A stretch of 63,610 bases of DNA, the filler included, from Collodictyon triciliatum (Eukaryota): assembly GCA_043381765.1 (NCBI GenBank). It is 5 parts of 5 records of this genome, joined end to end, with 100 filler letters (N's around TTAATTAATTAA, not from the genome) between each part and the next. Parts side by side here need not be neighbours in the genome. Positions count along the whole stretch, not along the records: positions 1 to 17,060 come from JBHJMP010001492.1; 4 more parts are not named here. One strand, written 5' to 3'. Positions 1 to 56,608 of the stretch are shown one piece after another. The translations under genes and the position numbers were made by a program. The first letter of the stretch is position 1, and each line of letters opens with the position of its first letter. The notes under the pieces were generated by a model, which saw nothing but the letters and a program-made list of their open reading frames with translations, did no database searches and was not told where the DNA came from.

Positions 1-3000
1 CATGCGGACTTTCTTCAGTACGATGGCGACGGAATCAACGTTCATGTGCATCCACTTATCAGCAAAATCTTGTTGCATAGTAATGGATTTTTCATCCGAG
101 GTTATCAAGTTCGGTTTTGTGATTCTCGTTTGTGTACCATGCCTATCGATATAGAAGTAGAGTCCAATAGTCAAGTTCTTGTTTTTCCTCTCAGACTCTA
201 CATCTTTCTCAACCTTTTCACCAGTAAGAATTTCGATCTCCATCAAAAAGAAGGTATTTGGAGTGTTCTCTGGTGCAAAGCTGTTCAGGTTGAAAACAAC
301 AGCGTCATCATCCTGCTTTCGTACAAAAAGGCGAGTGTGCGAAGACTCTAGCGAGGTATCTTCCGTTGATGGGGTCTCTTGAGCGGATGTACCTGGAAAA
401 TAAAAACCATATGTATAAATATTACAGGGCGGCTCAGATCAAGAGTCATCACCTGTGTTACATATTACTAATACAACCATGTATTATGTAGTGGATATAA
501 AGTTGGTATCATTATGCAGGGGTCTAATAAGAGGCTAAATTGACTGATTATTTCCTATGACACACAAGACTTTACATTTTTGCTAGTATTCATAAAATTT
601 ACCTGTGTGGTGAGTAGCTGGAGATGGTACAATCTTTCTGCTGCGTGCAAGTGTGCGTAAGCTGGATAGCTAATGAAATGTAGACAGAAAAGATATTTGT
701 TCAAGTATAAATATGTAGACGTGTATGCGTATGCGTATATCGACAGATTGATAGGCATTTCGCATTGCTGGATATTGCCCAAATTCTTTTATTTTTGTGG
801 TTGCGAAAAAAAAATTATCATATAAATACAGCAACTTCGACGGACGACTTTACATATCATATATAGAGGTGAAACGAATATCAATCTGTTACATAGAGAA
901 CAAAACAAACCTTTTGTTCACCTCGCAATTTCTGCATAATAACATATGCAAGCCACCATAGTGGGCTTGCGATGAACCAACTCCATTGTAAGAAGACAAA
1001 CAAAGAGCTGTAGAAAATTTTGATAACCACGCTATCTTTTCCATATATGATATCAGACTGTTCGGTAATCTGATTCTGAACCTTTTGAAATATACGTTTG
1101 ACGAAGGCAAATATGCTACTAGATGTTTCAGTCTGAGAGCAATTTTCATTTTTATCTTCAGAGGCTTTGGAGTCATTTGTCTTCAACTGGGATTGAACCC
1201 TGCTAATAATATTGGGTGTACTCTTTGAATTCTTTTTCATCTTATCATTTCCATGAATTTCATGCTCTTTGGTCTTCTTTTCTTCAGCTTCCTTATTTTC
1301 TTCGGCTTTCTTCTTTTCTTCAGCTTCCTTCTTTTCTTCAGCTTCCTTCTTTTCTCCAGTTTCCTTCTTTTCTTCAGCTTCCTCTGTTTCATTTTCGTCT
1401 TTGTTGCTTGGTAGATTGTACAAGGTGGCATAGATCAAGTAAGCTAAATCTGTTTGACCATGGTATCATATATCCAACATTAATTAGTATCGAATGGAAA
1501 ATAAAGCAAAAATACAAGTAGAATAAACCGTTAATTACCGCTATGTCTCACAAGTGGTGGGTGAGCAGAGGAGGACAAAAGAAGAGAAAATAATACAGAA
1601 AGTATATGAGAGGGAAAGTGTGTTCTTACATAAGCAAACGAAGACAGGCAGGTATGTGATGGCCAGAACTAGAATGGCGATGATGAATCCAAGAAAGGCT
1701 ACAATTCCCACAAAAGCAGCGAGCCAGTTGACAGAGCGAGCTAAAAAGAAGACACCCAAATGATCCACAGAAGGCACTGTCTTACTATTTGCATTGAATC
1801 TAAGAGATACAATGTTTTCTATAACACTACGGACATAGGCTTTGTGTGAATTCCGTTCCGTATTCATGTACAGAATGTAAGCATTGTCCGTGGGCATGAA
1901 ATCATACATCAACTCCAAGAGCCAAGGAATGACAAACTTTGAGATGGGCGTGAGTACGTTCAGAGGGACGTGCGATATGTTTTCTTGCATTTCTTTCACA
2001 ATTTTTGAAAACATGACCTGAAATTTCCGTTCGGAATCTTGGCTAATCTCTTCGTACCCAGCACTTAATAGGGCGATGAGGATATTGATGAGAATGATGA
2101 CACATACAATCATGAAGGCGAAAAAGAAAAAGACGCCTGCAACCGGAGCTGCAGACTTGATATCATCAAAGTTGAACTCTCCAAAGAGCATGAGGCCGAA
2201 GCTGTATGCCGAATCGATTTGGGTAGAGAGATAGGGAATATACTTTCCTGTTATAACATATAGGGCAGACGCAAACGCAGCGAGGAATGTGAAGAGAATG
2301 ATCATAAAACCAAAGGTTTCCTGGACAGAGCGTCCTATGATCAGCACAAGAGTCCCGGCTGACTTTGACAAACTCATGAAAAAGAGGAGGCGAATCCAGG
2401 TCAAGAAAAGCAGGACGGAGAGCACAATTTGCTTGACCTGCACCACCGACACCTTTTCGAAAATGGATGCAGAAGAGTAATTTTCTAATTTGGATGTATC
2501 TAGAGTGTTGCTAACTCTCAATTGGAGAATTACCGTGTACAAAAGGGCACAGACCATAAGGATATCGATCCAGTTCCAGACACTCCGAAAGAACTGCTGC
2601 TTTTCTTCCTTCAGTTGGTGAACTTCGTGGATAAGAAAACCGATGGCGTACACCACTAGCAGGTAAAAGATGACCGATTCACGATTCAGATCCAAATCAA
2701 AGAGCAGCAGAGGTATATTTTCTACTTTGGTGATGGTAGTAACCGACCCAGAGCCAGGAAACTCAATAATTTGGGTGATGGTGCTAAGAAGTCTCAAGTT
2801 CTCATTAACTGCATGGTACTCTAGTAACACCACACGTGTTTGGTCGTCAAACCACCCATCTTCTTGCAACTGATTTGCCATAGAAATGGATTCCTCGTAA
2901 TCCATATCCAGAGACTGTGCGTACCCTCCCCCTTCGTAAAATGTATTCGATGAACCAAAGTAGGGAATTCCATGAAGTTCAGATTCGGTCTGATACCTAA

Positions 3001-6000
3001 ATTGGTTGCTTGGCCCATAGTTCGTCCTGTCTTCGTATTGTTGAATGTAAGGATAGACGCACTGGGTAGCCCCTGGAATATTGCAGTCGACTTTTTTGGA
3101 TCTCAATTGGCGCAAGCGAATAGGGGTAATCAATCGATAGTATGTGGGGATGGATTCACTTTCTGTGGGCAAATATGCCTTATACCCCATATCGATCCCT
3201 TGGAAGGCCTTTGGCAGAAAAACATCTCTAGTGTAGTTCCAAAAGCCATTGGAGAAGTCACTTGTCTCTGTGGCAAAAAGATCATCGATTCCTTGCTTGA
3301 ACTGAATGGACGGGACTCCTGTGGCTTGGTTATGTTGCACAGCAAAGTAGGTAATCAAAAAAACATAGACAGAGTATAGCACGAAAAACATCATAAACTC
3401 TACCCTGGGTGGGCGGTTAGACCCCGTGGTCAGCATTTCCAGATAGAATTTAATGTGCTGCCAAATAGACCAAAAGTATATGTCTGGGTTCTCGTAGAAT
3501 TTTGAAACGTTTTTGTCCATCCTCTTCCAACTTTTAGCTTTGCCGTTTGCTTTATCGCTTGTTTCTTTATTTTTTGCAGAGCTTGCTTTGTCGCCTGCTT
3601 TGTCCATATCTGTGGAGTCTTTTTTCTCACTCAAGGTCTTGGGATCACTGCTCATGGTATGATATCCTGGTGTTTTTTCTAAAACATCCAAGTTTGGGTC
3701 ATTGAGGTAGAAGTTTCCACGAGCCCATGTTTTTGTGACGATATCCGATATGCATGGTTCTGAAAGGAAATATTCTGCACCAGCGTCCGATGCGATTTTG
3801 ATACACTCGCGCAGCTCTTGTTGGTTTTCATGAAATTCTTGCTGTGATTTTTTCTTGTAGTCATCTCCAGCTCTTCTGGCTGCATACTTGTCAAACTCCT
3901 CAATCATTAAGGGGTCTGTTTGCCAAAGTGATTTCAAGTGTTGGACAATCAGTAAAGCTTTCCTCATTGGTGAGTGCTTGGTGTTTTCAAAGTACTTTTG
4001 GGCCTCTTTGGCATACGCATTTTTCCGTATTGGATTATCTCGGTATGATAACACTCGCAGTCGGGAAAGCTCACATAGTTCAGGACAGATAGCTAAGTTC
4101 AAAATGGATATATGATGTGTTATACATTGGACTTTTGTATCACTTATTACATACTATAATTATTTTACTATTATTTCTCATTTTGGCAATATAAGGGCAC
4201 AATTCTAATGTCAAAATATATGAATAGACTTTAGACAAGCCCATTCCATCTCTTGATATTGGCGGATGTTTGTTTTGTTTTGTTTTGTTTTGTTTTGTTT
4301 TGTTTTGTTTTGTTTTGTTTTGTTTTGTTTTGTTTTGTTTTGTTTTGTTTTGTTTTTAAAAAAAAAAAGAAGGGAAGGAAGGCGAAGAGAAAGACATCGG
4401 AAAAAGGAAAGCATAGAAAAAGGGGAGAAACCAATTTTAAATGGTTTTCTTTTCTTTCAATTGATAATGTTCTTGGGAAAAATTTTGATTTTTTTTTTTT
4501 TGTCGAATACCCCATGAAAGAACTGATAAGTCTTGATATGATTGCTGGTGAGCGAGTGTGAATGAATAATTTTGTACAGACCTATTTTTGGTGGTCTTTC
4601 CTTCCTCTGCTGCGATTCATCAGATGACTCTTGGGGATTATCTGCATAGTATATGAATAGCTCGAATGCATCTATTGGAATATTCTTTTTCTCATCTTTA
4701 TTTTCTTCTGTCCCATCATCGTCATCCTTGGTGACTCTTATACTCCAATGACCCAGTTTGTTAGCATCGATATTGAGCTCCTCAAGAGACGTCATGTACT
4801 GGATGTAGTTGGGTATATATGATATGTTGTTGCGCGAAATGTCAAGAGTCTTTAGGTGCGACAGGCCAGATAATACTCTAGGTATGCACGTCAGCTTATT
4901 GTTGGATATATCCAGGGCTGTGACTTTCCCAAGGACGGCAAGAGCGTTTAGTGAAGGTGGGGACAGCTTTGCAGAAAGATGAACGTTACCGAATTCAGCA
5001 GACTCTGTCGCTGCTGTCCATATTGCTTTTTCGGCATCACAAAGCTCCATTTCCTCCACAGAGTCAACAATGTCAATAATACGAGGAGAACGCACAAAGT
5101 TTGCGAGGGACCCCATCTTGTTTCCTTCGAGGTTGAGGGAGATGAGATTTTTTTGGTTTGAAAAATCTTGAGTAATTCTTTTTAACATGTTGAAAGAAAG
5201 ATCCAACTTGTGAAGGTTGGTCAAACGGGACAATTCATCAGGGAGATCAGTCAACTTGTTTCTAGACAAAGAAAGGAATGCAAGATGGTTCATTTTCAGC
5301 AAGGCTTCCGGAAAATCTTGCAAATTGTTGATGCTAAGATTAATGACTGCCAGCATGCTCATTTGGCTAAAGAACTGAGGCACGGTGGTAAGATTATTCC
5401 CTGCTACGTTGATTTCTGTGATACGATTTGGGGTTAAAAGTGTAACATCATCAAGATTGGAGTTGTAGAATGACAAAGACAGCCTCTGAAGGTCAATTAA
5501 TTTATTATATTGTATTATGGGCTTTTTCAAAGGACTGTCAACAATAAGTTCCCGTAATGAGCTAGGTAGGAATCCTTTTTCCTGGGAATCTTCAGGCAGA
5601 GAAAATCTATTCTTGCTTATGTCCAGAAATCTCAGCTTGGTCAAAGCAGATATATTCACGTCGAAAGATATCAATGCAGCGGAGAGATTCAGATGGACCA
5701 AGTTTTCTAGTTTGAGGATGGCAGCAGGAAGTCTGGATAAGGCATTTCCTGACAAGTCCAGAAAGGTGACATTAGGTATGGATGTAGCCAATAAATCATC
5801 GATGCGGTTCATGTTATTGCGTCGGAGTGAGAGGGAGACCAAGCAGGACAAAGAACTGAGGCTTGTGAGGAAGTCAGCATAGTTATTTCCTTCAATGACG
5901 AGACGACTTATTGTAGACGTGTCTATGGCATGGCTGATATTGAACCCGGTGCAGTGTATGAGCTTCAGTGTGTTGATGTTTCTGATTCGATTTGTGTGCA

Positions 6001-6847
6001 CCAGTTGGGTATTTGATGCCTGCAAAGCATTGGTTGGTACGTACCGGCAGTTGTGGAGCTCCAAGTGTGTCACGTTATTTTCAGCATTGATAGCCAGAGG
6101 AGGACTCATAGAGTTTGTAATAAGGAGATGAGTATCGGGGGCGATAGTAGATGTGGCATGTAACAAAATAAAGAGGTTGGTGTCCCATAGCTTCAGGTGT
6201 GTGTCACCGAGACTCTTCTCTATGTATTTGGGCGCTGTTTTTGCGTAGTCCGGGTCAGTATTTTCTTTGCGCACCTGCTTCATGTGGATTTTTGGAGCGA
6301 AGTACATTGTATCCACATCATCCTTTTCATCCTGCAGTTCTTTTGTAACCCCTGAGTTGTCGATGAGCGACTGTCTCGACTTTTCGGACAAAAGGATTCT
6401 GCAGGGTGTAGCAACCTTGATATCAGAAATACTGGTCTTAAGCGATGGCAAAAAGCGCAGGTCAATGGTGTGGAGGTGGCCAAAGTCTTGCCAGTCCGCA
6501 AAGATGCACTCGAGGGGGTTGTCTGATAGGTCGATGAGCTCCAGTTTTCGCGGCAATACTGAAACATCTTCCTTGGAGATGGACCTATATTTGTTCTTGG
6601 ACAGATCCAGAATGCGCAAGTTTGTCAATTGAGAGACTAGCGTCGGGAATTGATCGAAGTTCTGGTCGCTTAGATTCAAGATTATAACTTGCGCCAGCCT
6701 TGGGTATCGCGAGGCTATGTGTTTGTTTGCGGCGATTTCCTTTTCTTTCTCCTCAATCTCAATGTGCTTCCAAGTGGTACCTCGGCGCCGCAGAAGATTC
6801 GTAGACGAGCCTGTGGGCAGCTGCCGTTGCACAGATTCGGCACTCAT
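1..6847 (-). CDS. LRR-repeat + polycystin-2/TRP-like cation channel, multi-exon, 3' end runs off the window
   Basis: Exon ~4582-6847 is LxxLxLxxN LRRs. Exon ~1630-4092 starts with a final LRR (ELCELSRLRVLSYRDNPI), then TOP-domain motifs (PIRLRQLRSKKVDC, YEGGGYAQSL, WFDDQTRVVLLEY), S2-S6, pore GLMLFGEFNF and LINILIALLS. GT-AG introns link the ORFs (e.g. 4545-4581; donor at 1629). Further exons lie at ~911-1443, ~603-669 and 1-393. The junction at 4093-4510 is not fully resolved. Confidence 0.8.
1277..1382 (-). repeat. Coding 18-bp repeat, (AEEKKE)-like x~6, in the channel C-terminal tail
   Basis: ORF 881..1438 reads EAEEKKETGEKKEAEEKKEAEEKKKAEENKEAEEKK. Confidence 0.85.
4268..4352. repeat. 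(TTTTG)n intronic microsatellite
   Basis: Direct reading. Confidence 0.95.
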
Positions 6848-6976
6848 TGGCACGGCTTATCTAGTGTTAGGAGCAGTTAGTTTGCTGCTGTTCCTCTTGT
6901 TACTGCTGCTGCAACCTCGACAGCCGATCATAAAGGTGTTGTGTTTACATTTTCTGTATTTTCTTTGTTTTGCTGT

Positions 6977-7068
6977 GTTTCTTTTGGGCTTTCTTTTGGG
7001 CTTTCTTTTGGGCTTTCTTTTGGGCTTTCTTTTGGGCTTTCTTTTGGGCTTTCTTTTGGGCTTTCTTC
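6977..7068. repeat. 12-bp minisatellite (CTTTCTTTTGGG)x~7, probably in the 5' UTR of the channel gene
   Basis: Direct reading. It lies upstream of a GTAAAC...CTAAC...TAG intron (~6860-6948, minus strand) that precedes the ATG at 6847. Confidence 0.85.
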
Positions 7069-7282
7069 AAGGCTTGAGTAGTCTTGGTTGATTCGAGTTG
7101 GGTTGGTTTGTGCGGGTTGATTTATAAACAAACAAATGCGCGCACACAGAGAATGAGCCGCTGCATTTGGTTATTTGGTAATTCAAAAAATTAAACTTGT
7201 GGGCATGAATGTCAACATAATTATGATTTCTTATTATGGTATGCCTACAATGAATTTGCCATCGTCGTTCCTGCCAGAAGAG

Positions 7283-7531
7283 GGCGGGGTGGCCGTGTGG
7301 TCAATCGCCTCCGGAGGGGGAAAATTTTGCCTCGGATCGAATCCAGGTCAGGGCTCCTGGTGGTTGCAGCTCCTTAGAGTTGTGATTATTCTCAACCCCC
7401 TCGGGTGCATATGATGGGCCATGAACCCAGCTTCCATACCAAGCCGGCCCGCACCCTTATCTGACACGCGCCACTGCTTTCAACCAAGGCACAAAACAAA
7501 TCTGTCTGACTGAAAAAAATAAAATAAAAAA
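7283..7531 (+). mobile_element. Possible tRNA-derived SINE or tRNA pseudogene
   Basis: A-box-like TGGCCGTGTGG at 7290-7300 and B-box-like GGATCGAATCC at 7334-7344, with an A-rich end at ~7513-7531. No proper cloverleaf or target-site duplication was seen. Confidence 0.3.
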
Positions 7532-7955
7532 CCCCCGCTTCCTTCCCTTGAATCAAATGAAGGGAAAAATCATCGTTCCTCCCAACCAAAACAGCCTCCA
7601 CCGCATCGCGTATCGTCTCATTTCACAAAGCACCACAACAGAACAAAGTATTATGTTCGAATTTTTTATATGTTTATTTTATTTTTATTTGTTTATTTTA
7701 TTTTTATTTGTTTATTTTATTTTTTGCTGTTCTTTTCCTGTGGTTGGTGGTGGCACAGCGAGGGCCCCCTGAGCCCTATGAACGAAAGATACAAAGGTTG
7801 GTATATCTTACGAAGCAAAGTTAAATTATTTTATTTCAAAAAAAAATGAAAGTATGGGAATGTATGATATTCAAGAAATTAGGTATGCACGAAATTCGAT
7901 TTCTGGTGGACTCGTCCTTGCCTTATATATTAGGGCTTGTGCTTCTCGGCCTGTC

Positions 7956-10900
7956 TCATTCTTCCTTTCCAGCCAGTTGGTTCATAAGTAGCCGATTCAA
8001 GTTATTGCAACCAACCAAGTTGTCGTATATGATCTCCTCTCCGCGGAGCGACTCGTGAGACGTCCACATCAAATGCAACTTGATAACCCGTTCTTGTGTC
8101 TCGGAAATTATATCAATCAGCCACTTGCAAATTGCCCCATCCTCTCCACTTGTTAGCAGGCTTGGTGGCTTTGGAATGTATTTAATTGAGCGCACTTGAT
8201 TGTGAAGCTTCTTCTCAAACAGCACTGCTTCCGATTCAGGTTCTACCGAGTCTGGACAGATTCTCACGATTCTCACAAATCCGTCGCGGCATCCAAAAGC
8301 AACATACTCTTCACCACAGAAATCAAAGGTGTCCAGGCAATATAATGGATCTTCTAGGGGTTCCATGTAAGTCAAGGATGCGTCATGACCCTCCGAATCA
8401 GAAAATTCACCATATGCGAGAGACCCGGACTCATCAACAACAGCAAACCGTTGTTTGCTTCCGATAGATTTCAAAAAAACTATAGCCGCCCCATCTTCAA
8501 AGGGGGTTGAGGCCTCAACTTTCGATTTAACTCCACAAGAAAATGATTTATCTGTTTGATTATAGGTGATGTGCACCAACAGTGCGGATTCAGCTTCCAA
8601 GAGTATTGCCACGGAATTAAACTCGCAATCAAATTCTTTCATCACGAATGCGTGTACACCAGTTTTAAGACAGCTGCTTGCTTTTGATCGAGTATCGTAA
8701 AAACGAAAACTGGCTTCTACAATACAAAATATGACATCACTATCACCTAATCTTTTTACGTCAAAGCTTCCAACTTTTTTTCCCAGTTTACCCGTGGATA
8801 ATTCTTCTTTGTCGCCTTCAAAAGGATTAAACCACCTGTAATTGTCATCCTGAGAGTAAAATATCTTGGTGCTGTTTTCACCAACATGTAAATGAATATT
8901 CGGCACCATGTCAACAGTATCTTTCGAAACTAAGCAGCTCCCAGTCGATAGATTCCAAACTTTTATGCTTTTGTCAGAACTTCCCGAGGCAACTAAGTCA
9001 GCTTGGAAGATGCTGCCTTGAGACTCAGTGGCCGAGCCACCAGACCCGGCTGATATGCTTGGGGGCATGGACAAGGACAGGGCATTCACTGCTTTTTTGT
9101 GTCGTATCATCTGCTTCGTCTGTTGGCTTGTATGCAATTCCCATATCCAAATATTATTGTCCTTGCATGCACCCAAGAGATACATATTGTTATTGTACTC
9201 CATAATATCGATCTTCGTCACAACACCCGCAGGTCCCAGAATCTGGTCTATGACATCTTTTTTGGCCAAAGACCAAACATATATCATCGTATCCATGCCA
9301 GTTGAAACCAAAAAGTTGTCATGGCTGTTTGGATTATTTATCCATTTGACGTCATTTATTGATTTTTTATGATTACCCTCCAACTGGGCAATTATTTTCC
9401 CATCCAAACCATTGAAAATGTGGATCTTATCTCGTAACACCAGTGCAATATGAGGTATCTCATTTATAAATGTAATACTTAATGAATTCACTCTCACGTT
9501 ATCAGTTTGTAAGGTAGTGTATTCCTCACATATAATAGGGCTTTCCAGTTTTACGGTTATGACACTCGCATGGCTAAGCGCCCCAGCTACGACTATGCGA
9601 GTTTTGCCTTCAGCCTGAAAACATCCTATAGCCTCCACAGAACTTTTCATGTCGTATGATGGAGTACGTTGTTTTAGTACTGCTGAGGCATCAGATAGCA
9701 TTTCAAACCATAAAATAGTATAGTAGCCACTTATTGAACCTATAGCCACGACCAAATCTGTATTTCCTTTTTGAGTCTGAGAAAGGTCGCTCTTGAGTAC
9801 ACATATGGTAGTTATTTGAGTTTTTTCAATGGCATCAAGTGGCAAAGAGGTTATGTCTTCTTGGGTTGTTACATTACATATGGAAAAGGTACCCTCTTTA
9901 TCACCACTAAGAATATAATCCACGCCATTTACTCTTGCATGGGCCAACGACGATATTCCCGAACGAGCTCTCACAACCGGCACATTCATCATATCAACAG
10001 ATATATCCCAAAAGTGTAGCTTAGTAGTTTCTGAAGAACAAACATAGCTTTTATCCGATCCTTTTCCAGGAATCCAGCAAACTGTATTAACAGGATTTTC
10101 GTGCTTCAACTTTGGAAGCATACCAAATTCAACACCTTCCATTATGGCATTTGTGAATGTGCATCCACGTATGTTTGCATTTCGTAGGGTAACTCCAGTA
10201 AGATTCGCTTTTGTAAAGTTCACACCCTGCATTACTGCACAAGATAAATCAGCATGACGTATGTTCACCCCAGCAAAGTCAACTTTGTGCATAGGGATTC
10301 TGGAGTAACAAAGTAATGTAATTGCAATACTTGAAGCTTGCCAAATTTCCTCAGAGTCTGAGTCCTTTGAATGATTTATAATGTCGAAAAGATTTTTCAC
10401 AATATCTGGATGGTCACTTACATATTCAGATATTAGACCCAGTATAAGGGTATGGGTGGCCCTCAGCGAATAAATGACTGATTTTCTATCTTTCCAAAGG
10501 TCTGTAGACAATAGCTCTTCAATTGCTTTTTTGGCTATGAAAAAGTCTTTGATAAACCGTTGCTTGAATTGGAACTTCTCGCCAGACTCATCACGCACTT
10601 TTCTCAGGAATGATATTTTTGCCGAGGTCGATACCGACTTTTGTCCTCTCTTTTCTTTGATTATTTCAAGAAATGATGATCGATCGATACTTGAACTCTT
10701 TGACGTGAATATTTTTTGTGCAACAGCAATTGATATCGACTCGTCGATGTACTCTGTGGAAGCAGCTGTGTCCTTGATACTAGAGAACCAATTCCTTATA
10801 AAATTTTCAAAAATCTGGAATCTATTGATAGAATATTGATGGACCGGATGCACGTCTGGACTATCCGAATAGCCTGTAAGTATCAGATTGAGCATGAATG

Positions 10901-13628
10901 GAATGGATGACAGCTCTGCGATGGTATGCGCATGGAAACATAGCTTTCCAAAGTTGGCTGAAATGGCATCCTTTTTATATTTAATTTTAAGATGTTTATA
11001 TTCCTCGATGTACTTATCTATATCTTCACGTCCAAAAGGCAATAGGTAAAGGATCGACATTTCAATATCTAATTTATTTGGATTAAAAAGAGTCTGAAAG
11101 TCGGACAATGTCTTTTGTGCTTCTTGCCTGAATGTCAATATAATCTTGTATGATTTGATAGCTTCCCAGCTATTGAATAGCAACCTTCCAATATCATTAT
11201 CTTTCATTTCGTCAACGCCATCCAAAAGCAATATTTGATCGGGATTCTCTTGTGCCTTCTCGTGGCCATGTTGAACTGCATTGTCATCAGCATAAAAGGT
11301 GTCATCTGTATCATTCGCACTTGCCTCTGTAGGTTTAATATCGTATTCGGTAATAATTGCATCTTTTATCAAAGGAAGGTACACTGAGCTTGTGCTTAAA
11401 GTTTTCTTATTGGATAACATGTTTTCTACTCTCCGATTTTGAATGTTTTTCAAAAAGACTGTTTTTCCTATTCCTGCAGGCCCAGCCACAACCAAAATTT
11501 TTGAACTAGAATCCAAAAATGAGTTGAAAATGGATCCAGCAAAAGATGCGTCACCTTGTGGTGATGACTTTCCCATTGCATCTATGTATATTTCTTTCTG
11601 AGCCTGTAAAAATAGTGAATCTGCAACGTCTTCAGAATCAGAATCCAAAAGTATTTGTATATCTGTCGGCGAGTCAAACAATGTGGTAGGCAACGGCTCT
11701 ATAGAATGCAAAAAGAATGGCTTTGAATACAGGCTTTGATTCAGAAAAGTAAATCCTCTATTTAAGGGAGTTCCTTTCTCCCTTTTTTTAATATGTTGTG
11801 GCTGGGATGTGCCTTTTTCTACTCGACGTTTTTGTAAAAAGTGTCTCATCCGACTGGTATTTTCTAAAATAAATTGCGAAACTTCATCCATGAATATATT
11901 TGATTGAGATATGTCAGCCAGAAAAAAAAGGCCATGGTAGATGGCATCATGAACAGCAGGAGAATCATCAGCAGATGTAGGGAATATGTCCTTTATGAAA
12001 ACAAAACACTTGCAAGCTGTATCAAAGTCTGATAGCGTCAAGGCCCAGCTAAGCAAATCGATGGTATTCAAAACATTGTATGCATGACCTTCAAGGCTTA
12101 GGAGTGTTATCAATTTTGAAAATGCCCTATGATATTTTTTTTCTCGAAGTGAGGATGTCGCATCAATAAAGAGTATATAGCGTGTGGCGTCAAACCCAGT
12201 TAAGTCGCTTTTCTTCATGTATTGCAACGATAATCTTATTTGATGTGCAAAGAAATGCAGTGTTTGTGGTATAAATACCAACAGCTGTTCAATTTCTTGA
12301 AAATAAGCCGATATATTCACGCTATCGATACAGCATAAGTTCAGTATTCGGCACATGTAAACGCAGAAGGTCCTCTGTCGATAGAAATCGAGCAAATGTA
12401 CTTGGATAGAGCCCAACTGTCGCAGTAACTTTTTTACCAAGTCTGGCATGTGCGTTTTGAGTTCGTCATCAAAAAACCAGCTATCCCCTAAACATTGAAG
12501 AAAGTCTAGAAAGAGCTCCTGGCGAGAAAAACTCTGTGTCTCGCTACCTGGGGGGTTTTCAGCCTCTTTACTATCAGGATCCAAATCTCTGATAGAATCA
12601 AAATTGACATTCAGTAGCAAATCCAGTAGTGCCTTCTTCCAGTGATCTTTTAAGCATCTGCCAAGAAACTTGAGTTCTTTCAAGTGGAGATAGGTCTTAT
12701 TTTCAAAATCAACCATCTGTATCACTTGATGAACCTTTTCCATATATCTTTTCGTGATAAACTCCGGGCCCCACCGAATTTGATTGCATAACTGCAGCAT
12801 ATTTCCAGGAGGTTGGGTTGGAATCTGAGGCGAGAATTTCGTCTTGCTATTGTGTAAAGGACGAAAAGGATTTGGAGGTAATTGCTGGGAGGATTTTGTT
12901 ACCGCTTGGACTTTGCTCCTGTCACCTTTTTTGCTGTGACTTACAGACCTCCTATCTTCAGTGCCATTGTCATGCTGAACGTGAGAGGGTGGTGAGTTCC
13001 CTGGTTGGTTTGGGCTGGCATCTTCCCTTCTACTTCTCGTAGTTTCAACCCCAGTACCTATGTCTGGCATCACACCAATCATTTGATTGATATTTGGCGA
13101 TGGGAGCTCCTCGTTGAAAGAACCATTCAGATCTTCCTTTTGGAGAGGTGTCTGATACCCTTGATGGAATGATATATCCTTGCATCCTCTCATGATCGGG
13201 TCGTCTCTGTGTGATGATAAGGCATTGAGAGAGTACGATGCACCACCGCCATTGGTTTTGAAGTGGATATGGATGCACTGCGTCGAACTTTTTGAGGCAG
13301 GGTACGTGACAAGAACGTGGTGGGACAAGTCGAAATGTAATGTATAAGAGCCGGGTGACGTGAGATCGGCAGCAAACGGGTAGGCTTGAAGCGGACTCTT
13401 AGGGTACAACGCGTGTTCTCTATCTTGGTTTGTAAATTGTGCAAATATGTCAGTTAGGGCGTGCTCAAAGCCCATGGAGAAGGTTACTGAGGTCTGAGAA
13501 TCCCACAGACCAGTGGATGGATCAAAGAGCACAGGCTGGATGTGTTGCCCATTCTCGGAGGCATACAAGTGCAGGGTCTCTCCCAACCGGATCAATGCAT
13601 GACGCGCTTCCAAGTTTGAGGGGTGCAT
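7956..13628 (-). CDS. NACHT (STAND) NTPase + pentapeptide repeats + WD40 repeats, NLR-like, 1890 aa, uninterrupted ORF
   Basis: Walker A GPAGIGKT (~11461-11483), Walker B LLLDGVDE, KIILTFR, LLPF, IPFML, WHD-like FKQRFIKDFF. Pentapeptide block ASSIAITLL...ADLSCAVMQGVNFTKANLTGVTLRNANIRG...VEFG. WD40 motifs VASGSSDKSIKVWNL, LVSTGMDTMIYVWSL and LTSGEDGAICKW. Confidence 0.92.
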   Translation of the reverse strand: MHPSNLEARHALIRLGETLHLYASENGQHIQPVLFDPSTGLWDSQTSVTFSMGFEHALTDIFAQFTNQDREHALYPKSPLQAYPFAADLTSPGSYTLHFDLSHHVLVTYPASKSSTQCIHIHFKTNGGGASYSLNALSSHRDDPIMRGCKDISFHQGYQTPLQKEDLNGSFNEELPSPNINQMIGVMPDIGTGVETTRSRREDASPNQPGNSPPSHVQHDNGTEDRRSVSHSKKGDRSKVQAVTKSSQQLPPNPFRPLHNSKTKFSPQIPTQPPGNMLQLCNQIRWGPEFITKRYMEKVHQVIQMVDFENKTYLHLKELKFLGRCLKDHWKKALLDLLLNVNFDSIRDLDPDSKEAENPPGSETQSFSRQELFLDFLQCLGDSWFFDDELKTHMPDLVKKLLRQLGSIQVHLLDFYRQRTFCVYMCRILNLCCIDSVNISAYFQEIEQLLVFIPQTLHFFAHQIRLSLQYMKKSDLTGFDATRYILFIDATSSLREKKYHRAFSKLITLLSLEGHAYNVLNTIDLLSWALTLSDFDTACKCFVFIKDIFPTSADDSPAVHDAIYHGLFFLADISQSNIFMDEVSQFILENTSRMRHFLQKRRVEKGTSQPQHIKKREKGTPLNRGFTFLNQSLYSKPFFLHSIEPLPTTLFDSPTDIQILLDSDSEDVADSLFLQAQKEIYIDAMGKSSPQGDASFAGSIFNSFLDSSSKILVVAGPAGIGKTVFLKNIQNRRVENMLSNKKTLSTSSVYLPLIKDAIITEYDIKPTEASANDTDDTFYADDNAVQHGHEKAQENPDQILLLDGVDEMKDNDIGRLLFNSWEAIKSYKIILTFRQEAQKTLSDFQTLFNPNKLDIEMSILYLLPFGREDIDKYIEEYKHLKIKYKKDAISANFGKLCFHAHTIAELSSIPFMLNLILTGYSDSPDVHPVHQYSINRFQIFENFIRNWFSSIKDTAASTEYIDESISIAVAQKIFTSKSSSIDRSSFLEIIKEKRGQKSVSTSAKISFLRKVRDESGEKFQFKQRFIKDFFIAKKAIEELLSTDLWKDRKSVIYSLRATHTLILGLISEYVSDHPDIVKNLFDIINHSKDSDSEEIWQASSIAITLLCYSRIPMHKVDFAGVNIRHADLSCAVMQGVNFTKANLTGVTLRNANIRGCTFTNAIMEGVEFGMLPKLKHENPVNTVCWIPGKGSDKSYVCSSETTKLHFWDISVDMMNVPVVRARSGISSLAHARVNGVDYILSGDKEGTFSICNVTTQEDITSLPLDAIEKTQITTICVLKSDLSQTQKGNTDLVVAIGSISGYYTILWFEMLSDASAVLKQRTPSYDMKSSVEAIGCFQAEGKTRIVVAGALSHASVITVKLESPIICEEYTTLQTDNVRVNSLSITFINEIPHIALVLRDKIHIFNGLDGKIIAQLEGNHKKSINDVKWINNPNSHDNFLVSTGMDTMIYVWSLAKKDVIDQILGPAGVVTKIDIMEYNNNMYLLGACKDNNIWIWELHTSQQTKQMIRHKKAVNALSLSMPPSISAGSGGSATESQGSIFQADLVASGSSDKSIKVWNLSTGSCLVSKDTVDMVPNIHLHVGENSTKIFYSQDDNYRWFNPFEGDKEELSTGKLGKKVGSFDVKRLGDSDVIFCIVEASFRFYDTRSKASSCLKTGVHAFVMKEFDCEFNSVAILLEAESALLVHITYNQTDKSFSCGVKSKVEASTPFEDGAAIVFLKSIGSKQRFAVVDESGSLAYGEFSDSEGHDASLTYMEPLEDPLYCLDTFDFCGEEYVAFGCRDGFVRIVRICPDSVEPESEAVLFEKKLHNQVRSIKYIPKPPSLLTSGEDGAICKWLIDIISETQERVIKLHLMWTSHESLRGEEIIYDNLVGCNNLNRLLMNQLAGKEE

Positions 13629-14251
13629 CCTGTCTGTAGGTCCTTTTTTCCCCTTTTAATGGAAAATATTAGGAACCCGGCTTTCTTTTGAGCCTTCCTT
13701 TTTTTTTTCTTTTTTTTTTTCCACTTTCTTTTTTTATTCCTTTTCCCTTGTTTTAGTGCCCACAGATCACATTGAGAGCAAGGACAGTACAGGTTGGGGT
13801 TGAACTCATATACATTAAAACACTAGGAGTGGCGCATAGCCAGTGATGAGGAGAAAGACTGATCAAACAGAGCCGAATAGAGACATCAAGTTGGCAGAAC
13901 AGCGCTCGTCTGTCCTGTGCGCTGCTCGTGTGCAGCGGATGCGATTAATCTGTTGCACTCGGAGATCGGCTTGGGGTTTTGTGTTTGGCAGAATGGCAAT
14001 TTTGTTCTGGTGTATTTTCAATGAATATATAGATTTATGGAATTTATATTGATTCTCAATTATTTATACATTTGGACAATATCAATCATTATGATACTCA
14101 ATTTCATCCAATATGCATATATTTGTATGTTTTTATGAGATAATGTGGACTTTTGTTCTAAGATAACCCATTGCGGGTGTCGCGATACCGGTGGGTTATT
14201 AATTTCACCAGTGTTGTCTTGGTACTTTGTCCTCCAATGTTTCAAGTAGCC

Positions 14252-14482
<231 letters not shown>

Positions 14483-15238
14483 TATAATGTGTTTGTTGCT
14501 GTTTNNNNNNNNNNNNNNNNNNNNNNNNNNNNNNNNNNNNNNNNNNNNNNNNNNNNNNNNNNNNNNNNNNNNNNNNNNNNNNNNNNNNNNNNNNNNNNNN
14601 NNNNNNNNNNNNNNNNNNNNNNNNNNNNNNNNNNNNNNNNNNNNNNNNNNNNNNNNNNNNNNNNNNNNNNNNNNNNNNNNNNNNNNNNNNNNNNNNNNNN
14701 NNNNNNNNNNNNNNNNNNNNNNNNNNNNNNNNNNNNNNNNNNNNNNNNNNNNNNNNNNNNNNNNNNNNNNNNNNNNNNNNNNNNNNNNNNNNNNNNNNNN
14801 NNNNNNNNNNNNNNNNNNNNNNNNNNNNNNNNNNNNNNNNNNNNNNNNNNNNNNNNNNNNNNNNNNNNNNNNNNNNNNNNNNNNNNNNNNNNNNNNNNNN
14901 NNNNNNNNNNNNNNNNNNNNNNNNNNNNNNNNNNNNNNNNNNNNNNNNNNNNNNNNNNNNNNNNNNNNNNNNNNNNNNNNATATATTTATATCTCGCTGG
15001 GTAGAGGGGGAGATAGACCTTCTTCTGTGCGCCAATTTCGATTACCGGTGCAATGCAGAGGCTTGGCCGTGGAGGCACGCATTTTGTCCGTTGGGGTGCC
15101 GCTTTCCAGACAACTCGGCCGCGAGGCAACAAGACAAATAACCTCAACAAGAAAATAAACAAAAACAAAAAACAAAAAACAAAAAACATCTTGCGACAAG
15201 AAAGCAGAAAACAAAGGCGAAGGCCAGGGCCAGGGACG

Positions 15239-16361
15239 ATGAGCACCACACAGACACATTCACACTCACACACACGGGCGCGACTGGACCAGCGGCACCG
15301 GTCGTTCGTGCAGACGATCGAGGCGGCGACGCGAGCAGAGGCAGAGGCAGAGGCAGAGGCAGAGGCAGAGGCGGGCGGGGCTGCGGGGTGGGGCGAGGGA
15401 GACGCGGAGGCGGGCGGAGGGGCGGAGCTGCGGCAGATGGAGCTTGTGCTGCAGCAGGCGGCGGAGTGGGCGCGGGTGGAGGGGCCGCCGGCGTCGAGCC
15501 TGGCCGAGTGCGTGCAGACGCTGCGGGTGCTGCGGGGCCGCGTGGAGCAGCGCATGGCGAGCGCCGTTGCAGCTGCGCGTGCGTTGCGGCTTCAGGTGCG
15601 TGCCCTGCTCACGGCCAACGCGCAGCTGCTCGCCCAGACGCAGCGGGACAGCCACAGCCACAGCCACGCAGCCAGCCACAGCCACAGCCACAGCCACAGG
15701 CACAGCCACAGCGATGCCGACCGCCAGACCGCGCAGCTGCACCGCTCGCTGCTCCTCGCCCACGCAGCCCTTGCCGACAGGGACCGCAGCCTGCTCCACG
15801 CGCGCGAGTCGGCCGCCTCCCTCCGCGCAGACCTCCGCGCCACCGCCGCACACGCCGACGCCCTCGCGCGGGAGCTGGACTTGTGGTATGTCCAGACACG
15901 GCCCTCGCTCGCTCACTCGCTCGCTCACTCCCGCGCTCACCCCCACCCCCACCCCCACCCGTAGCCGAGAGGACGTTGCCCGGCTGCAGCAGCAGCATCC
16001 GCAGCATCCGCATCAGGGCGACGAGGACGTGCGTCTGCAGCACCGGCGGCTGTGTGCGTATGCCGAGCACCTCGAGCTGGACGTGCAGCACCTGCGGGCC
16101 CAGGCGGCGGCGCACAGCGCACAGGACGCGCGCGTGCAGGCGGAGTTGGACCAGGCGCGCAGGGAGGCGCAGCGCTTCCGCGACGAGGCGGCCGAGGCAC
16201 GCAGAGAGGCCGACGACCTGCGCGAGGAGCTGCTGCACGAGCGCACAGACCGCAAGTCCTGGGCTGCCATGAGGGAGGACCTCCTTGCCCGGCAGGCCCG
16301 CATTCAGAGCGAGCTCCAGTCCGCCCTCCTCCTCCCGCCGCATCCCCACCCCCGCGCCTGA
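15239..16361 (+). CDS. GC-rich coiled-coil protein of unknown function, 2 exons, ~347 aa
   Basis: ATG at 15239. Intron 15886-15964 (GTATGT...CCGTAG) joins the two ORF frames in phase. The product is A/E/R/Q/L heptad-rich with (AE)n and (SH)n runs. Confidence 0.65.
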
Positions 16362-16639
16362 CTCCGTCCCTGCGCTGCCGTCCTGTTCATAAACAATGCC
16401 CCTTCGCCTGTCAAACGCCGCCTCTCTCTCTCTCTTTCTCTCTCTCTCTCGGAATGTGTCGCTTTTGGGGCGTACTGTTATCCTTAGTCTGCCAGAATAC
16501 GCCGGAGTCATTTGAACACAAGGCGCAAGAGAGCAAGTAAATATGAAGGGGAAAGATGGGAAGGGAAGGGGAGACTAAGGCAGTGCAGAGACACGCTGTC
16601 CACAGACTGACGCCGGCTGATCCTGTGCGCAGAAGCAGG

Positions 16640-16873
16640 ATGCGAACCGCTGTTGCTGTGCTGCTCGCTGTTGCCGTTGCCGTTGCCGTTGCCATCGCAG
16701 TTGTCGCCGTCCCCATCGAGTCCCTCGCCGGTGCGGACTCGTCTCTGCGTCTGCGCCACGTCTGCTCAAACTCTGCCCCGCTGCCTTTTGTGTCCATGAC
16801 TGTTGCGTACGGCTCATCCAGCGATGTCCAGTGCCCCAGTGGCTTCATCAAGATCCCCCAGGACCTCAATCAG
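16640..16873 (+). CDS. First exon of a secreted protein with an MABP/beta-prism-like motif, truncated by the contig end
   Basis: Signal peptide MRTAVAVLLAVAVAVAVAIAVVA, then CPSGFIKIPQDLNQ (resembles the MABP CPxGYxKIxxDLN motif). Donor GT at 16874 is followed by a (TTTTTACTC)n intronic repeat. Confidence 0.6.
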
Positions 16874-17060
16874 GTTTCGGCGTACTCTTTTTTACTCTTT
16901 TTTTTACTCTTTTTTTTACTCTTTTTTTTACTCTTTTTTTTACTCTTTTTTACTCTTTTTTACTCTTTTTTACTCTTTTTTACTCTTTTTTTACTCTTTT
17001 TTTACTCTTTTTTACTCTTTTTTACTCTTTTTTACTCTTTTTTACTCTTTTTTACTCTTT

Positions 17061-17160
17061 NNNNNNNNNNNNNNNNNNNNNNNNNNNNNNNNNNNNNNNN
17101 NNNNTTAATTAATTAANNNNNNNNNNNNNNNNNNNNNNNNNNNNNNNNNNNNNNNNNNNN
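17061..17160. other. Artificial contig-joining linker (N44-TTAATTAATTAA-N44)
   Basis: Six-frame stop 12-mer at 17105-17116 flanked by Ns; the same construct recurs three more times. Confidence 0.97.
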
Positions 17161-32880: not shown

Positions 32881-32980
32881 NNNNNNNNNNNNNNNNNNNN
32901 NNNNNNNNNNNNNNNNNNNNNNNNTTAATTAATTAANNNNNNNNNNNNNNNNNNNNNNNNNNNNNNNNNNNNNNNNNNNN
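32881..32980. other. Artificial contig-joining linker
   Basis: TTAATTAATTAA at 32925-32936 within Ns. Confidence 0.97.
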
Positions 32981-47857: not shown

Positions 47858-50800
47858 AGGATGGTGCTCCCTATATATTTGACTCAAGTCGTGTAATTTG
47901 AGTGGAAATTTTTGAAAAATAGAAAGCGTACAAAGGTCATCACTTAGAGTTGGACAGTCGAGGAGAGCCTTGACTTTTTCGGACAAAATCTCCAATATTC
48001 TATGGAAAAATAGATAAAATATATATTTTGTATATTTGTGATATACCAAGAAAAATCTATTGCGCAATTTTTCAACATAAGTGGTCCAAATCAATCACAA
48101 AATACGCCGCAAATAGAAAAGAAAAATTGCAATACCTTGTTTTCATGAGTGCGTGAAATCCCTTCCTCGTTGACGATAAAGCAGATAAACAGTATACAGT
48201 TTCGTTGAAGTCAGAAGAACCAGCTAATCTACGATGCGATTTACTGCCCATCAGTGAGCGTCTTACTTTATGGATTGGCATCCCTCATCATATGTATTAC
48301 ATTAATGATTCAATCTTGTGTTGTCATTCGATTGTGTGCATAGGATAATATATGAAACCTATCGACAAATAATCGGAAGGTATCCTCAAAAAAATGTTGT
48401 TGTTGAATCCAAAGGCATCCAATCGAGTGGAGACATACTGTGACATTATGGATTTTACACATTTCTTTTCATTCTCATTGAATACAAAAATAGAAGAAAA
48501 AGAGTACCGGAGGCCATGGAGGGGCACCATAGTTTATGTGTCTCGATAATATCTCTGATGTACGTAAATCCTATGCGATGCTTGACGACTTGGGAGATGA
48601 CATTCAAATATCCTTCTTTAATCCTATGTTAATTTTGTATTGATATCTAATAGACTCGTTTCAAAATTGACATCAATTAGATTATCTTTGAATCGAATAA
48701 AAAAAAACATTAATCAGATTATGTAAAATTAAAATAGTAGACATTTATCGACTTATATGAGCATTACGGCTGAGGTAGCTTTGAGCTGATGGCAGAAACA
48801 ATTTCACAAAGCAGATGTTGGTATACATTCGCGTCTTGATGACTGTATTTTAAGAGTAAATCGAATCGTATATTTAACACAAACATCACTTGGCTGGATA
48901 AATAGACAAAAAAAAATCAGGAAAGCATAACAGACGGGATTTGCATTAAACAAATTCACTATATGAATACAGTTTAATGTACATTCTTTCATTGAACGGA
49001 ATAAACTTGTACCCATAAAAAGGACTGCGCTCAAATATTTTGGTTAATATAATTGATATGTAAGTATGGCTGCTAAATAATCGCTCTATCTGCTCTTTCT
49101 GATTACTAATCTCATCAAGGTCTTTTTGAATGCATGCGATTTTATTCGCTATCCTCTCGATATTACTCTCCTATGTAAAAACATTAAGTTTGGTAGAAAT
49201 GCTACAGGCCCGCATAAAAACGCTGTATAGAATAGATTTTTAAGCGTACACTTAAAATAATCGATATCCCTTTCTCGTAGTTGACTTCAAGGAAGCATTC
49301 CAGCGAGTTGAAAGACGAGTCCAATAGCGACTTTTGTAATGTCAGTGATATTGGTAATAATAATTTAATCAATTTAATGGTCCAAATCGTCAAAATGATG
49401 CGTAAATATCACTGAAATATTAAAGGCACTAGTATCAAAATATGCATATCAAATGGGGAAAGATGAAGGCGAGGACATCATTAAGTGTTGACTAATCATA
49501 TTACTTTATATCTCGAAGTCTTGGTGCGAAATAAGGTATCTGTTAGAATCTGAATCAACAACTCCACTGTTCTTGACACTGATACTAGGTTGAATTATTA
49601 AAGAAAAAATAGGTAAATTTACCATTTTCCATATTAATTTTTGATATTTTATTTTGATAAAGAAATAAAATGTACCAGAGCCCTCCGCTTTACCAATAAA
49701 AGACTCTTGAAAGGCTGGTGTAAGATTGAATCCGCAAATGTGTTAAAAAATGATAAAAGATCGGTATCATTTAAAGTATGATGTTGCTTAAAATTTTCAT
49801 ATCAAATAGATCCAAATAATACGTACGAAGCGAAAAGAAAATGAACGTAATAATGATACAAAACATCATACATACATACATACATACATACATACATACA
49901 TACATACATACATACATACATACATACATACATACATACATACATACATACATACATACATACATACATNNNNNNNNNNNNNNNNNNNNNNNNNNNNNNN
50001 NNNNNNNNNNNNNNNNNNNNNNNNNNNNNNNNNNNNNNNNNNNNNNNNNNNNNNNNNNNNNNNNNNNNNNNNNNNNNNNNNNNNNNNNNNNNNNNNNNNN
50101 NNNNNNNNNNNNNNNNNNNNNNNNNNNNNNNNNNNNNNNNNNNNNNNNNNNNNNNNNNNNNNNNNNNNNNNNNNNNNNNNNNNNNNNNNNNNNNNNNNNN
50201 NNNNNNNNNNNNNNNNNNNNNNNNNNNNNNNNNNNNNNNNNNNNNNNNNNNNNNNNNNNNNNNNNNNNNNNNNNNNNNNNNNNNNNNNNNNNNNNNNNNN
50301 NNNNNNNNNNNNNNNNNNNNNNNNNNNNNNNNNNNNNNNNNNNNNNNNNNNNNNNNNNNNNNNNNNNNNNNNNNNNNNNNNNCATACATACATACATACA
50401 TACATACATACATACATACATACATACATACATACATACATACATACATACATACATACATACATACATACATACAAACATACATACATACAACATAATA
50501 ATAATATATCGATGATAATATTAAAGTTGTTGAAAATTCAAAAAAATTAACAAGATAAACCTTCTGGGAATGGAATCAGATGAGATATGAAGCTGATACA
50601 GAAAACAAAAATAGAATATTGCTCTTCTATTTTCCATTCAGCAGGGAATGTGCCCCTATGGTAAGTTTTATCTTTATATTTTTCTTTTTTAAAAAGAATT
50701 AGATGATAACACGATATGAAGTCTTATAATGTGTTTATAGCATACTTGCTCGGTAGTAGTGATTCTTTTCTGGTGAGCATTTGAATTCGATTCCAGATGT

Positions 50801-51492: not shown

Positions 51493-51592
51493 NNNNNNNN
51501 NNNNNNNNNNNNNNNNNNNNNNNNNNNNNNNNNNNNTTAATTAATTAANNNNNNNNNNNNNNNNNNNNNNNNNNNNNNNNNNNNNNNNNNNN
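51493..51592. other. Artificial contig-joining linker
   Basis: TTAATTAATTAA at 51537-51548 within Ns. Confidence 0.97.
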
Positions 51593-56508: not shown

Positions 56509-56608
56509 NNNNNNNNNNNNNNNNNNNNNNNNNNNNNNNNNNNNNNNNNNNNTTAATTAATTAANNNNNNNNNNNNNNNNNNNNNNNNNNNNNNNNNNNN
56601 NNNNNNNN
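56509..56608. other. Artificial contig-joining linker
   Basis: TTAATTAATTAA at 56553-56564 within Ns. Confidence 0.97.

Follow-up and report, generated by a model that had tools for sequence, protein, structure and literature searches.

The window analysed here is a stretch of 63,610 nucleotides, filler included, from Collodictyon triciliatum (assembly GCA_043381765.1). Its first part (JBHJMP010001492.1, window positions 1-17,060) carries one expressed, spliced gene of at least three exons, the product of which (approximately 1765 amino acids) sets an N-terminal region of leucine-rich repeats (LRRs) before a polycystin-type transient receptor potential (TRP) channel core. This LRR-channel fusion is a family trait seen in independent transcripts and no accident of gene modelling, because transcripts of Diphylleia rotans carry LRRs, linker and channel together. 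As usually divided, TRP channels of group 1 are built with cytosolic arms of ankyrin repeats or MHR domains, a linker helical domain (LHD) and a TRP helix; those of group 2 (polycystins and mucolipins) have a large ectodomain between the membrane helices S1 and S2 and little cytosolic structure. The gene described here combines features of both groups, with the arm replaced by LRRs. Judged from sequence and model comparisons, its product is best regarded as a TRPP-type core in which the group-1 coupling apparatus would have been kept or acquired, with LRRs in the place of ankyrin repeats. As such, it offers a testable case of a cytosolic solenoid coupled to a TRP gate and bears on the ancestral form of TRP channels. 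Its host belongs to the CRuMs, a deep and poorly studied eukaryotic lineage.

One Spliced Gene

A scan for open reading frames (ORFs) found two long minus-strand frames, 6856..4457 and 4153..1541, in the places where an earlier note on this DNA had read an LRR frame and a channel frame. Translated from the ATG at 6847, the first yields a protein of 796 amino acids (P0001), and the second one of 870 residues (P0002). The region has a GC content of about 40% and contains no N run within 1-14504. The earlier note took the two frames for a single gene and named RNA evidence across 4093-4581 as a check, and that check has come out in its favor. Public sequencing runs were found via the locus, and contigs of four of them (X1-X4) were placed on positions 1000-7600. 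A cDNA contig from X1 (1080 bases, 95-99% identical to the window) joins 4092 exactly to 4582, as predicted. The stretch left out, 489 bases long, has CT..AC ends on the plus strand, and 94 bases lie on the shorter side of the joint; the contig's loose ends carry what we presume to be SMART-type cDNA primer sequence. A loose end from X3, a metatranscriptome of a separate study, agrees: the contig stops at 4095, continues with 17 bases identical to 4585-4601 and then enters adapter, which gives the same joint. X2 and X4 are without a contig at this point. Contigs of two runs show the second joint, 1449 to 1630, with 63 bases on its shorter side in X1 and 23 in X4. The splicing of this second intron (1629..1450) means that the final 30 codons of the channel ORF belong to it; the earlier reading of the ORF's end had overlooked the intron, and a further exon replaces those codons. 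Both joints keep the frame, and with introns 1 and 2 removed it stays open to a stop at 881-883, for a total of 1765 amino acids. The RNA contigs placed on the gene lie within 1013-6842, covering 4582-6842 of exon 1 with no joint inside it and, in X3, 1013-1210 of exon 3. Upstream, an in-frame stop lies three codons before the ATG at 6847. The gene and its predicted product are laid out as follows.

4582..6847, minus strand: exon 1, from the ATG at 6847, 755 codons and one base; N-terminal LRR region of 14 or more repeats and acidic tail
4093..4581, minus strand: intron 1, 489 bases, GT..AG, phase 1; contains an (AAAAC)n microsatellite
3716..4092, minus strand: start of exon 2; last LRR-like unit, IPPExC motif and a helical linker domain of five to six helices resembling the TRPC LHD and TRPM MHR4
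3530..3680, minus strand: insert rich in Lys, Ser and Asp, predicted to be disordered; a gap in the Diphylleia homologues
3338..3394, minus strand: S1, where the hydrophobic segments of the protein begin; residues 989-1007 of the spliced product have a hydropathy of 2.12, and the model shows a helix at 228-254
2708..3265, minus strand: Polycystin (TOP) domain between S1 and S2 (Pfam PF20519), with an invariant cysteine pair
2045..2674, minus strand: S2-S6, PKD_channel core (Pfam PF08016); pore filter FGE at 2177-2185
1916..2101, minus strand: end of S6, candidate TRP-box-like helix (ERKF opposite EWKF) and PLN motif
1450..1629, minus strand: intron 2, 180 bases, GT..AG; joint 1449 to 1630 in RNA contigs
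881..1449, minus strand: exon 3, closed by the stop at 881-883; a tail rich in Glu and Lys, then a hydrophobic segment bearing the family motif LW....PLW; provisional 3' end

That the two frames are separate genes, their fusion being read-through or an artefact of assembly, is barely credible. Each ORF is complete enough to be called in its own right, and the LRR ORF has its own stop (4457-4459) inside intron 1. Against this stand the spliced contig, which joins both frames at canonical GT..AG sites, and the state of intron 1, across which runs X1-X4 show no RNA contig save one low-complexity fragment. Moreover, the channel exon lacks a separate start, homology with the family sets in at its first codon, and in eight of eight family members the linker follows the N-terminal region directly within a single transcript. 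In tblastn searches of the window, the Diphylleia rotans proteins match the LRR exon, then the stretch from the first bases of exon 2 (4093/4096) and then the channel; for one of them (P0015) the match is unbroken from 4093 to 1853.

The LRR Region and Its Side of the Membrane

The exon 1 product (P0001) scores 115 bits with Pfam LRR_8 (cut-off 27) and also matches LRR_4, LRR_14 and LRR_1; only LRR families are found in this exon. A simple pattern recovers 14 units, mostly at a spacing of 23-24 residues and lying in blocks at about residue 100 and at 336-430, 476-590 and 642-710, in the tandem LxxLxLxxNxL form by which LRR proteins are recognised. The earlier note had described some 750 amino acids of LRRs. 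The exon of 755 codons is indeed LRR-rich, but the array is not unbroken, for residues from about 136 to 330 are poorly repeat-like and 700-755 form an acidic, low-complexity tail. A final LRR at the start of the channel exon had also been proposed, and an LRR-like unit is present there. The closest solved relatives of the region in a search of PDB sequences are LRRD1 (E 2e-39), Leptospira LRR proteins, SHOC-2 (3e-27) and LRRK2, and by this measure the predicted solenoid is of the SHOC2/LRRD1/LRRK2 sequence type. LRRD1, SHOC-2 and LRRK2 are cytosolic proteins. The LRRD1 matches are chains 9fqr_Xo and 9ijj_4X of two large multi-chain entries, which we take to be axoneme-type assemblies.

The N-terminus of the spliced product is hydrophilic, and no 19-residue stretch reaches a hydropathy of 1.6 before S1 (residues 989-1007). 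The absence of a signal peptide, which the earlier note had read from the sequence, is thus borne out. The six top homologues likewise start with Met, have hydrophilic N-termini and show no strong hydrophobic segment before S1, two of them having weak peaks of 1.6-1.7 within the LRRs. Since the TOP domain follows S1, the LRRs are therefore expected on the opposite, cytosolic side, and we infer that the LRR arm is cytosolic. An extracellular LRR region, as in polycystin-1, would instead make this protein a surface receptor-channel, and we regard that as very improbable. Polycystin-1 does possess LRRs (in precomputed Pfam annotation), and the RNA contigs stop at 6842, short of the 5' end of the mRNA. 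Nevertheless, neither the window protein nor any of its six Met-initiated top homologues has a hydrophobic N-terminus or pre-S1 segment, an in-frame stop lies just upstream of the ATG, the neighboring gene ends only 1.1 kb away, and REJ, GPS and PLAT domains are not detected in the window protein by Pfam at E ≤ 0.01. The TOP domain and its cysteine pair after S1 would place the N-terminus in the cytosol, and the LRRs are followed by a linker of a cytosolic TRP type.

A Polycystin-Type Membrane Core

The channel frame (P0002) matches Polycystin_dom with 82.7 bits (cut-off 23.6) over residues 297-482 and PKD_channel with 83.5 bits (cut-off 22.4) over residues 494-703. Compared with PDB sequences, exon 2 is closest to PKD2 (E 9e-43, residues 278-700) and PKD2L1 (4.5e-36), TRPC chains following at about 1e-6. 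An AlphaFold2 model built from 46 sequences (pLDDT 75, pTM 0.71) superposes on PKD2 in a Foldseek comparison (9dwq_A, E 5e-22, TMt 0.82, root-mean-square deviation 3.8 over 476 columns). In an alignment of the window protein with seven Diphylleia proteins (A2), the TOP-domain cysteines C336 and C344 are invariant in eight of eight and align with both PKD2 cysteines, and the Asn of S6 and other core residues are invariant in the family. The pore filter reads FGE opposite the LGD of PKD2, and the form FG[DE] is kept by six of the eight family members. The PKD_channel match, the TOP domain with its cysteine pair, the Gly/acidic filter and the superposition on PKD2 together place the core among TRPP, or PKD2-like, channels.

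Whether such a core conducts by itself bears on another alternative, namely that the protein is a non-conducting, receptor-like subunit that, like polycystin-1, depends on an ordinary PKD2-type partner. Two points favor this: the family has many and divergent members (28-33% identical to the window protein), and filter residues vary among its paralogues. The window protein, however, has retained FGE in its filter, the Asn of S6 and a full, confidently modelled, PKD2-like core of six helices, and we hold this alternative to be improbable.

A Linker and a Post-S6 Segment Resembling Those of Group-1 TRP Channels

Between the last LRR and the pre-S1 region lies a stretch of 125 residues that is conserved in the family, with P3, L46 and W122 invariant in eight of eight members (alignments A2 and A4). 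Exon 2 opens with the IPPExC motif, which is likewise conserved in all eight proteins of A2 and has an invariant proline. The linker is modelled as five to six helices (AlphaFold2 pLDDT about 85-96). When a profile made from the eight linkers was run against the full set of PDB sequences, 74 matches came back at E ≤ 10, and the best 60 of these are all TRPC or TRPM, aligned to the same region, with no PKD2 chain among them. The top matches are TRPC3 (3.9e-4, residues 224-335), TRPC6 (4.3e-4) and TRPM2 (1.9e-3, residues 635-743), and the FLSxP....W stretch of the family aligns opposite FVAHPNCQQQLLTIW of TRPC3. In a VIA fold comparison of a linker-only model with 48,161 representative chains, TRPM3 (Z 8.2), TRPM8 (8.1), TRPM7 (7.3) and TRPY1 (7.2) come out on top, and nine of the first 17 entries are TRP channels. 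These matches, weak singly and consistent together, point to a domain of the LHD/MHR4 kind directly before the pre-S1 region, where group-1 channels have theirs. The explanation that we find best treats the linker as a homologue of the LHD found in TRPC, TRPM, NOMPC and TRPY1, a reading suggested by the profile and the model alike. According to an excerpt of a preprint on the structure of TRPY1, the linker helical domain is common to TRPY1, NOMPC, TRPM4 and TRPC6 and touches the remaining cytosolic apparatus (bioRxiv 10.1101/2020.10.12.336495). The Lys/Ser/Asp insert of the window protein has a pLDDT below 50 at residues 137-186 of the model and is a gap in seven of seven homologues (A2).

Beyond the membrane core, the 62 residues from the end of S6 matched 42 PDB sequences at E ≤ 10, and all 42 are group-1 TRP channels or TRPY1, with no PKD2 chain among them. 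NOMPC (0.017), TRPC3 (0.031) and YVC1 (0.072) lead, followed by TRPC6, TRPV3 and Inactive. Here ERKF lies opposite the TRP box EWKF of TRPC3 and NOMPC, and the PLN motif lies opposite PLNL of NOMPC. Motifs of the ERKF and PLN type are common to the window protein, six Diphylleia LRR forms and an ankyrin-bearing metagenomic protein (P0024), and are absent from ordinary PKD2-like proteins. The contrast that the earlier note drew with group-1 TRP channels, by way of their ankyrin or MHR N-termini, was accordingly misleading, since the protein has a linker like the TRPC LHD and TRPM MHR4 and a candidate TRP-box-like helix. Beyond S6, each member of the family has one to three more hydrophobic segments; the one encoded in exon 3 of the window gene bears the conserved LW....PLW motif, which was aligned by eye to columns 1611-1625 of A2.

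A Diphyllatean Family

A HMMER search of 1.84 billion representative proteins returned 3430 matches at E ≤ 0.001, of which the best 150 were examined. Pfam was applied to 41 of these and a crude LRR pattern to the other 109, the family members ranking highest. The six best matches (E 5e-81 to 7e-56, 28-33% identity, 1263-2106 residues; the next match stands at 5e-41) come from Diphylleia rotans, as Trinity transcripts deposited in EukProt. Each of the six combines N-terminal LRRs with Polycystin_dom and PKD_channel, and four of the six end in a SPRY domain. The same organism has a seventh LRR form with these two channel domains (P0095, 994 residues) and a relative with a short N-terminus (P0040). 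The family has expanded in CRuMs: Diphylleia rotans has no fewer than eight divergent clusters of paralogues, and LRRs occur in seven of these. A hidden Markov model (HMM) of the linker gives the window protein 125.7 bits, a score inside the span of 122-143 bits seen in the family, and the features by which we delimit this Diphyllatean LRR-TRP family, namely IPPExC and a linker with the invariant Trp, followed by TOP domain and channel, are all found in it.

Among the 41 relatives scanned with Pfam, LRRs occur in the seven Diphylleia forms only, and no LRR form from outside Diphyllatea was found either there or among the loci of the metagenome scans. One of the 109 pattern-screened relatives, P0115, has four matches to the LRR pattern and is a possible LRR form. 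Word-index searches with P0002 returned only distant PKD1 and PKD2 relatives (21-29% identity), and one with A2 over proteins of 3687-5000 amino acids, a span outside the family's length range, returned PKD1 proteins and plain LRR proteins. The ESM Atlas gave no usable match to P0014. A metagenome scan with P0176 gave 63 pattern matches, none of which was confirmed, and one with A5 gave three loci and no LRR form, the best being an ankyrin-PKD protein (L001). A full-text literature search, judged largely from abstracts, yielded no account of an LRR-PKD2 or LRR-TRP fusion or of Diphylleia polycystins. The LRR-channel architecture is so far found only in this lineage and is undescribed in the literature searched. 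The earlier note had not recognised the architecture as described; on that point the literature search agrees with it, but with seven LRR clusters in Diphylleia rotans this protein is no one-off.

A quick, unrooted tree built from 42 channel cores unites the window protein with those of Diphylleia in one clade (SH-aLRT 85), to which P0024, a metagenomic ankyrin-PKD protein, is sister (SH-aLRT 97). P0024 also has an LLSHP....W motif before S1, in common with the end of the family's linker. Further PKD2-type cores with ankyrin repeats are P0092 and P0154 (both metagenomic), P0107 (Cavostelium) and L001, the last a metagenomic ORF of 2026 codons (contig positions 22-6099). WD40 repeats accompany such a core in P0118 (Cavostelium), and an RyR domain does so in P0064 (Cyanophora). 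The ankyrin and WD40 forms and the LRR family all lie outside a clade of the 28 remaining PKD-type cores, which includes P0064.

Proposed Working and Its Alternatives

Taken as a whole, the evidence is in our judgement best explained by a regulated, arm-coupled LRR channel, and we think this reading rather probable. The protein would assemble as a tetrameric cation channel, probably permeable to Ca2+ by analogy with other TRP channels, with LRR arms hanging in the cytosol where TRPC, TRPN and TRPA have their ankyrin arms. The arms would dock a protein partner or a tether, and their movement or occupancy might reach the S6 gate via the linker and the TRP helix, as in group-1 TRP channels. We consider docking or tethering of proteins by the LRRs more likely than the sensing of small ligands. 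Should the LRRs bind a cytosolic ligand, the protein would be a direct receptor-channel of a kind as yet undescribed.

Several observations weigh against the arm-coupled channel or the gene model beneath it. The X3 piece at intron 1 and the X4 piece at intron 2 span only 20 and 23 bases, to be set against a 31-base rule, and X1 was assigned as RNA only by a guess from the run table. The RNA contigs that cover the gene end at 6842, short of the ATG at 6847, leaving the 5' end likely but unanchored by RNA, and the 3' end is provisional, with a candidate GT donor at 910 preceding the stop at 881-883. For the linker, all VIA Z values lie below about 13, the tool's caution line for helical bundles; Foldseek returned nothing at E ≤ 0.001, most of the rows listed nonetheless being TRPC4/5 and TRPM8/4/3; and Pfam gave no family at E ≤ 10. 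The post-S6 E-values are marginal (0.017 or above), and Arg or Lys stands in place of the TRP-box tryptophan. In addition, the hydrophobic segments after S6 would allow the C-terminus on either side of the membrane. In the filter, P0013 has Asn in place of the acidic residue and P0018 an altered motif, and the paralogues need not all conduct alike.

The alternative to which we give most weight, unlikely as we think it on balance, is that the LRR arm is an anchor and not a sensor, attached to the flagellar or cortical cytoskeleton or acting as a gating spring like the ankyrin spring of NOMPC, so that the channel would be mechanosensory or merely localised. NOMPC is the best solved match of the post-S6 segment, the best LRR match is LRRD1 from large, seemingly axoneme-type assemblies, and four of the six paralogues add a further docking module in their C-terminal SPRY domain. 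Moreover, an excerpt of a study of Chlamydomonas describes PKD2 as attached to axonemal microtubules (PMC7265326). Binding of the LRR arm to the cytoskeleton is nevertheless purely hypothetical, and the LRR region is interrupted by non-repeat stretches. It also counts against a spring that LRR solenoids are not known to act as one.

A wider conjecture we regard as doubtful: the family may be a living intermediate between both TRP groups, with a TRPP membrane core, TOP domain included, to which the repeat arm, linker helical domain and TRP helix of TRPC, TRPM and TRPN still belong. The coupling apparatus would then predate the split of group 1 from group 2 and have been lost in animal polycystins, and Diphyllatea would have swapped an ancestral ankyrin arm for LRRs. 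A cytosolic receptor sensing patterns or proteins would thus be wired directly to Ca2+ entry. If this were true, the protein would be a one-polypeptide analogue of the NLR-type immune sensors that end in calcium channels.

Ends of the Gene and Neighboring Sequence

Several observations concern the introns and ends of the gene. The (AAAAC)n microsatellite occupies 4263-4384 in intron 1, and reads are apparently cut there. If intron 2 were kept, the frame would run on for 30 codons to a stop at 1541 and give a shorter product, without the tail rich in Glu and Lys and without the final conserved hydrophobic segment; runs X1-X4 contain no RNA sign for or against such retention. At 1326, within the Glu/Lys-rich repeat of exon 3, contigs of X2 and X3 are three bases short and have loose ends that enter different repeat-like sequence; the cause may be variation in length, or else a low-complexity coding repeat that cross-matches. 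Upstream of the gene, an X1 cDNA contig matches 55 bases at 7318-7372, flanked by unrelated sequence on one side and by primer on the other; this could be a 5' untranslated exon of some transcript, or a chimera.

At the other end, a minus-strand frame of 146 codons (438..1) runs off the start of the window and is either a further channel exon or the end of another gene. It has no Pfam match, the best being DUF6843 at E 0.018. A join of exon 3 to this frame from the donor at 910 to the acceptor at 393, either directly or through a possible 38-base exon at 603-640, was tried and abandoned, the frames being incompatible. A resemblance to SPRY, noticed by eye in the same frame, was not borne out: no SPRY domain was found in window positions 1-1500, whether by Pfam at E ≤ 0.1 on this frame and exon 3 or by an HMM of the Diphylleia SPRY domains in six frames. 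A further 3' end of the gene, for instance with a SPRY domain, may lie beyond the window.

The next gene upstream, 1.1 kb from the channel gene, is a single minus-strand frame of 1899 codons (7956-13655). Its product has a NACHT-type NTPase at residues 720-888, which with 26.5 bits falls slightly short of the cut-off, pentapeptide repeats at 1122-1177 and a WD40 propeller at about 1200-1590, a predicted STAND-type architecture with an unusual pentapeptide insert. Elsewhere in the window are plain N gaps at 14505-14980 and 49970-50382, together with four identical joiners of 44 N, TTAATTAATTAA and 44 N (17061-17160, 32881-32980, 51493-51592 and 56509-56608; none in 1-14504). The joiner looks like a spacer with stops in six frames, set between the parts, the order of which in the window is probably arbitrary.

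Comparison with Known Systems

The window protein shares with PKD2 and PKD2L1 the six-helix core, the TOP domain and cysteine pair between S1 and S2, the acidic filter and probably a cytosolic N-terminus, but it has only about 22% identity to PKD2. PKD2 has a short, unstructured N-terminus and is without a repeat solenoid, linker helical domain or TRP box. In layout the protein instead resembles TRPC, TRPM, TRPN (NOMPC) and TRPY1, where a repeat or other N-terminal domain is followed by the linker helical domain, S1-S6 and the TRP helix. It differs from these group-1 channels in having LRRs where they have ankyrin repeats or MHR1-3 (neither of which was found by Pfam in exon 1), in a core with a TOP domain that is far closer to PKD2 (E 9e-43) than to TRPC (about 1e-6), and in the replaced TRP-box tryptophan.

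With polycystin-1 and PKD1-like proteins it has in common the presence of LRRs and PKD_channel in one polypeptide. PKD1 has 11 helices and carries its LRRs outside the cell, after a signal peptide. The REJ, GPS and PLAT domains of PKD1-like proteins were not found in the window protein, the N-terminus of which is hydrophilic, and the earlier note was right to keep the two apart. The same applies to its distinction from LRRC8 (VRAC), likewise a channel subunit with cytosolic LRRs. In LRRC8 a C-terminal LRR domain is attached to a four-helix, pannexin-like fold that forms hexamers, whereas here the order of the domains is reversed and the core is of the six-helix PKD2 type; no LRRC8 chain occurs among 50 PDB sequence matches of the channel exon.

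The ankyrin-PKD, WD40-PKD and PKD-RyR fusions of protists offer a broader parallel, each joining a PKD2-type core to a lineage-specific cytosolic module, though none has LRRs. The closest counterparts are the Diphylleia rotans proteins of EukProt EP00002 (P011439, P035109, P032529, P025998, P022273, P033110 and P026996). Identity to them is 28-33% in search matches and 20-29% in A2; the Diphylleia proteins have fewer LRRs, four of six carry a SPRY domain, of which none was found in window positions 1-1500, and they lack the Lys/Ser-rich insert of the window protein. These proteins and that of Collodictyon triciliatum nevertheless belong to the same family, and share LRRs, IPPExC, linker, TOP domain, channel and a putative TRP-box-like helix.

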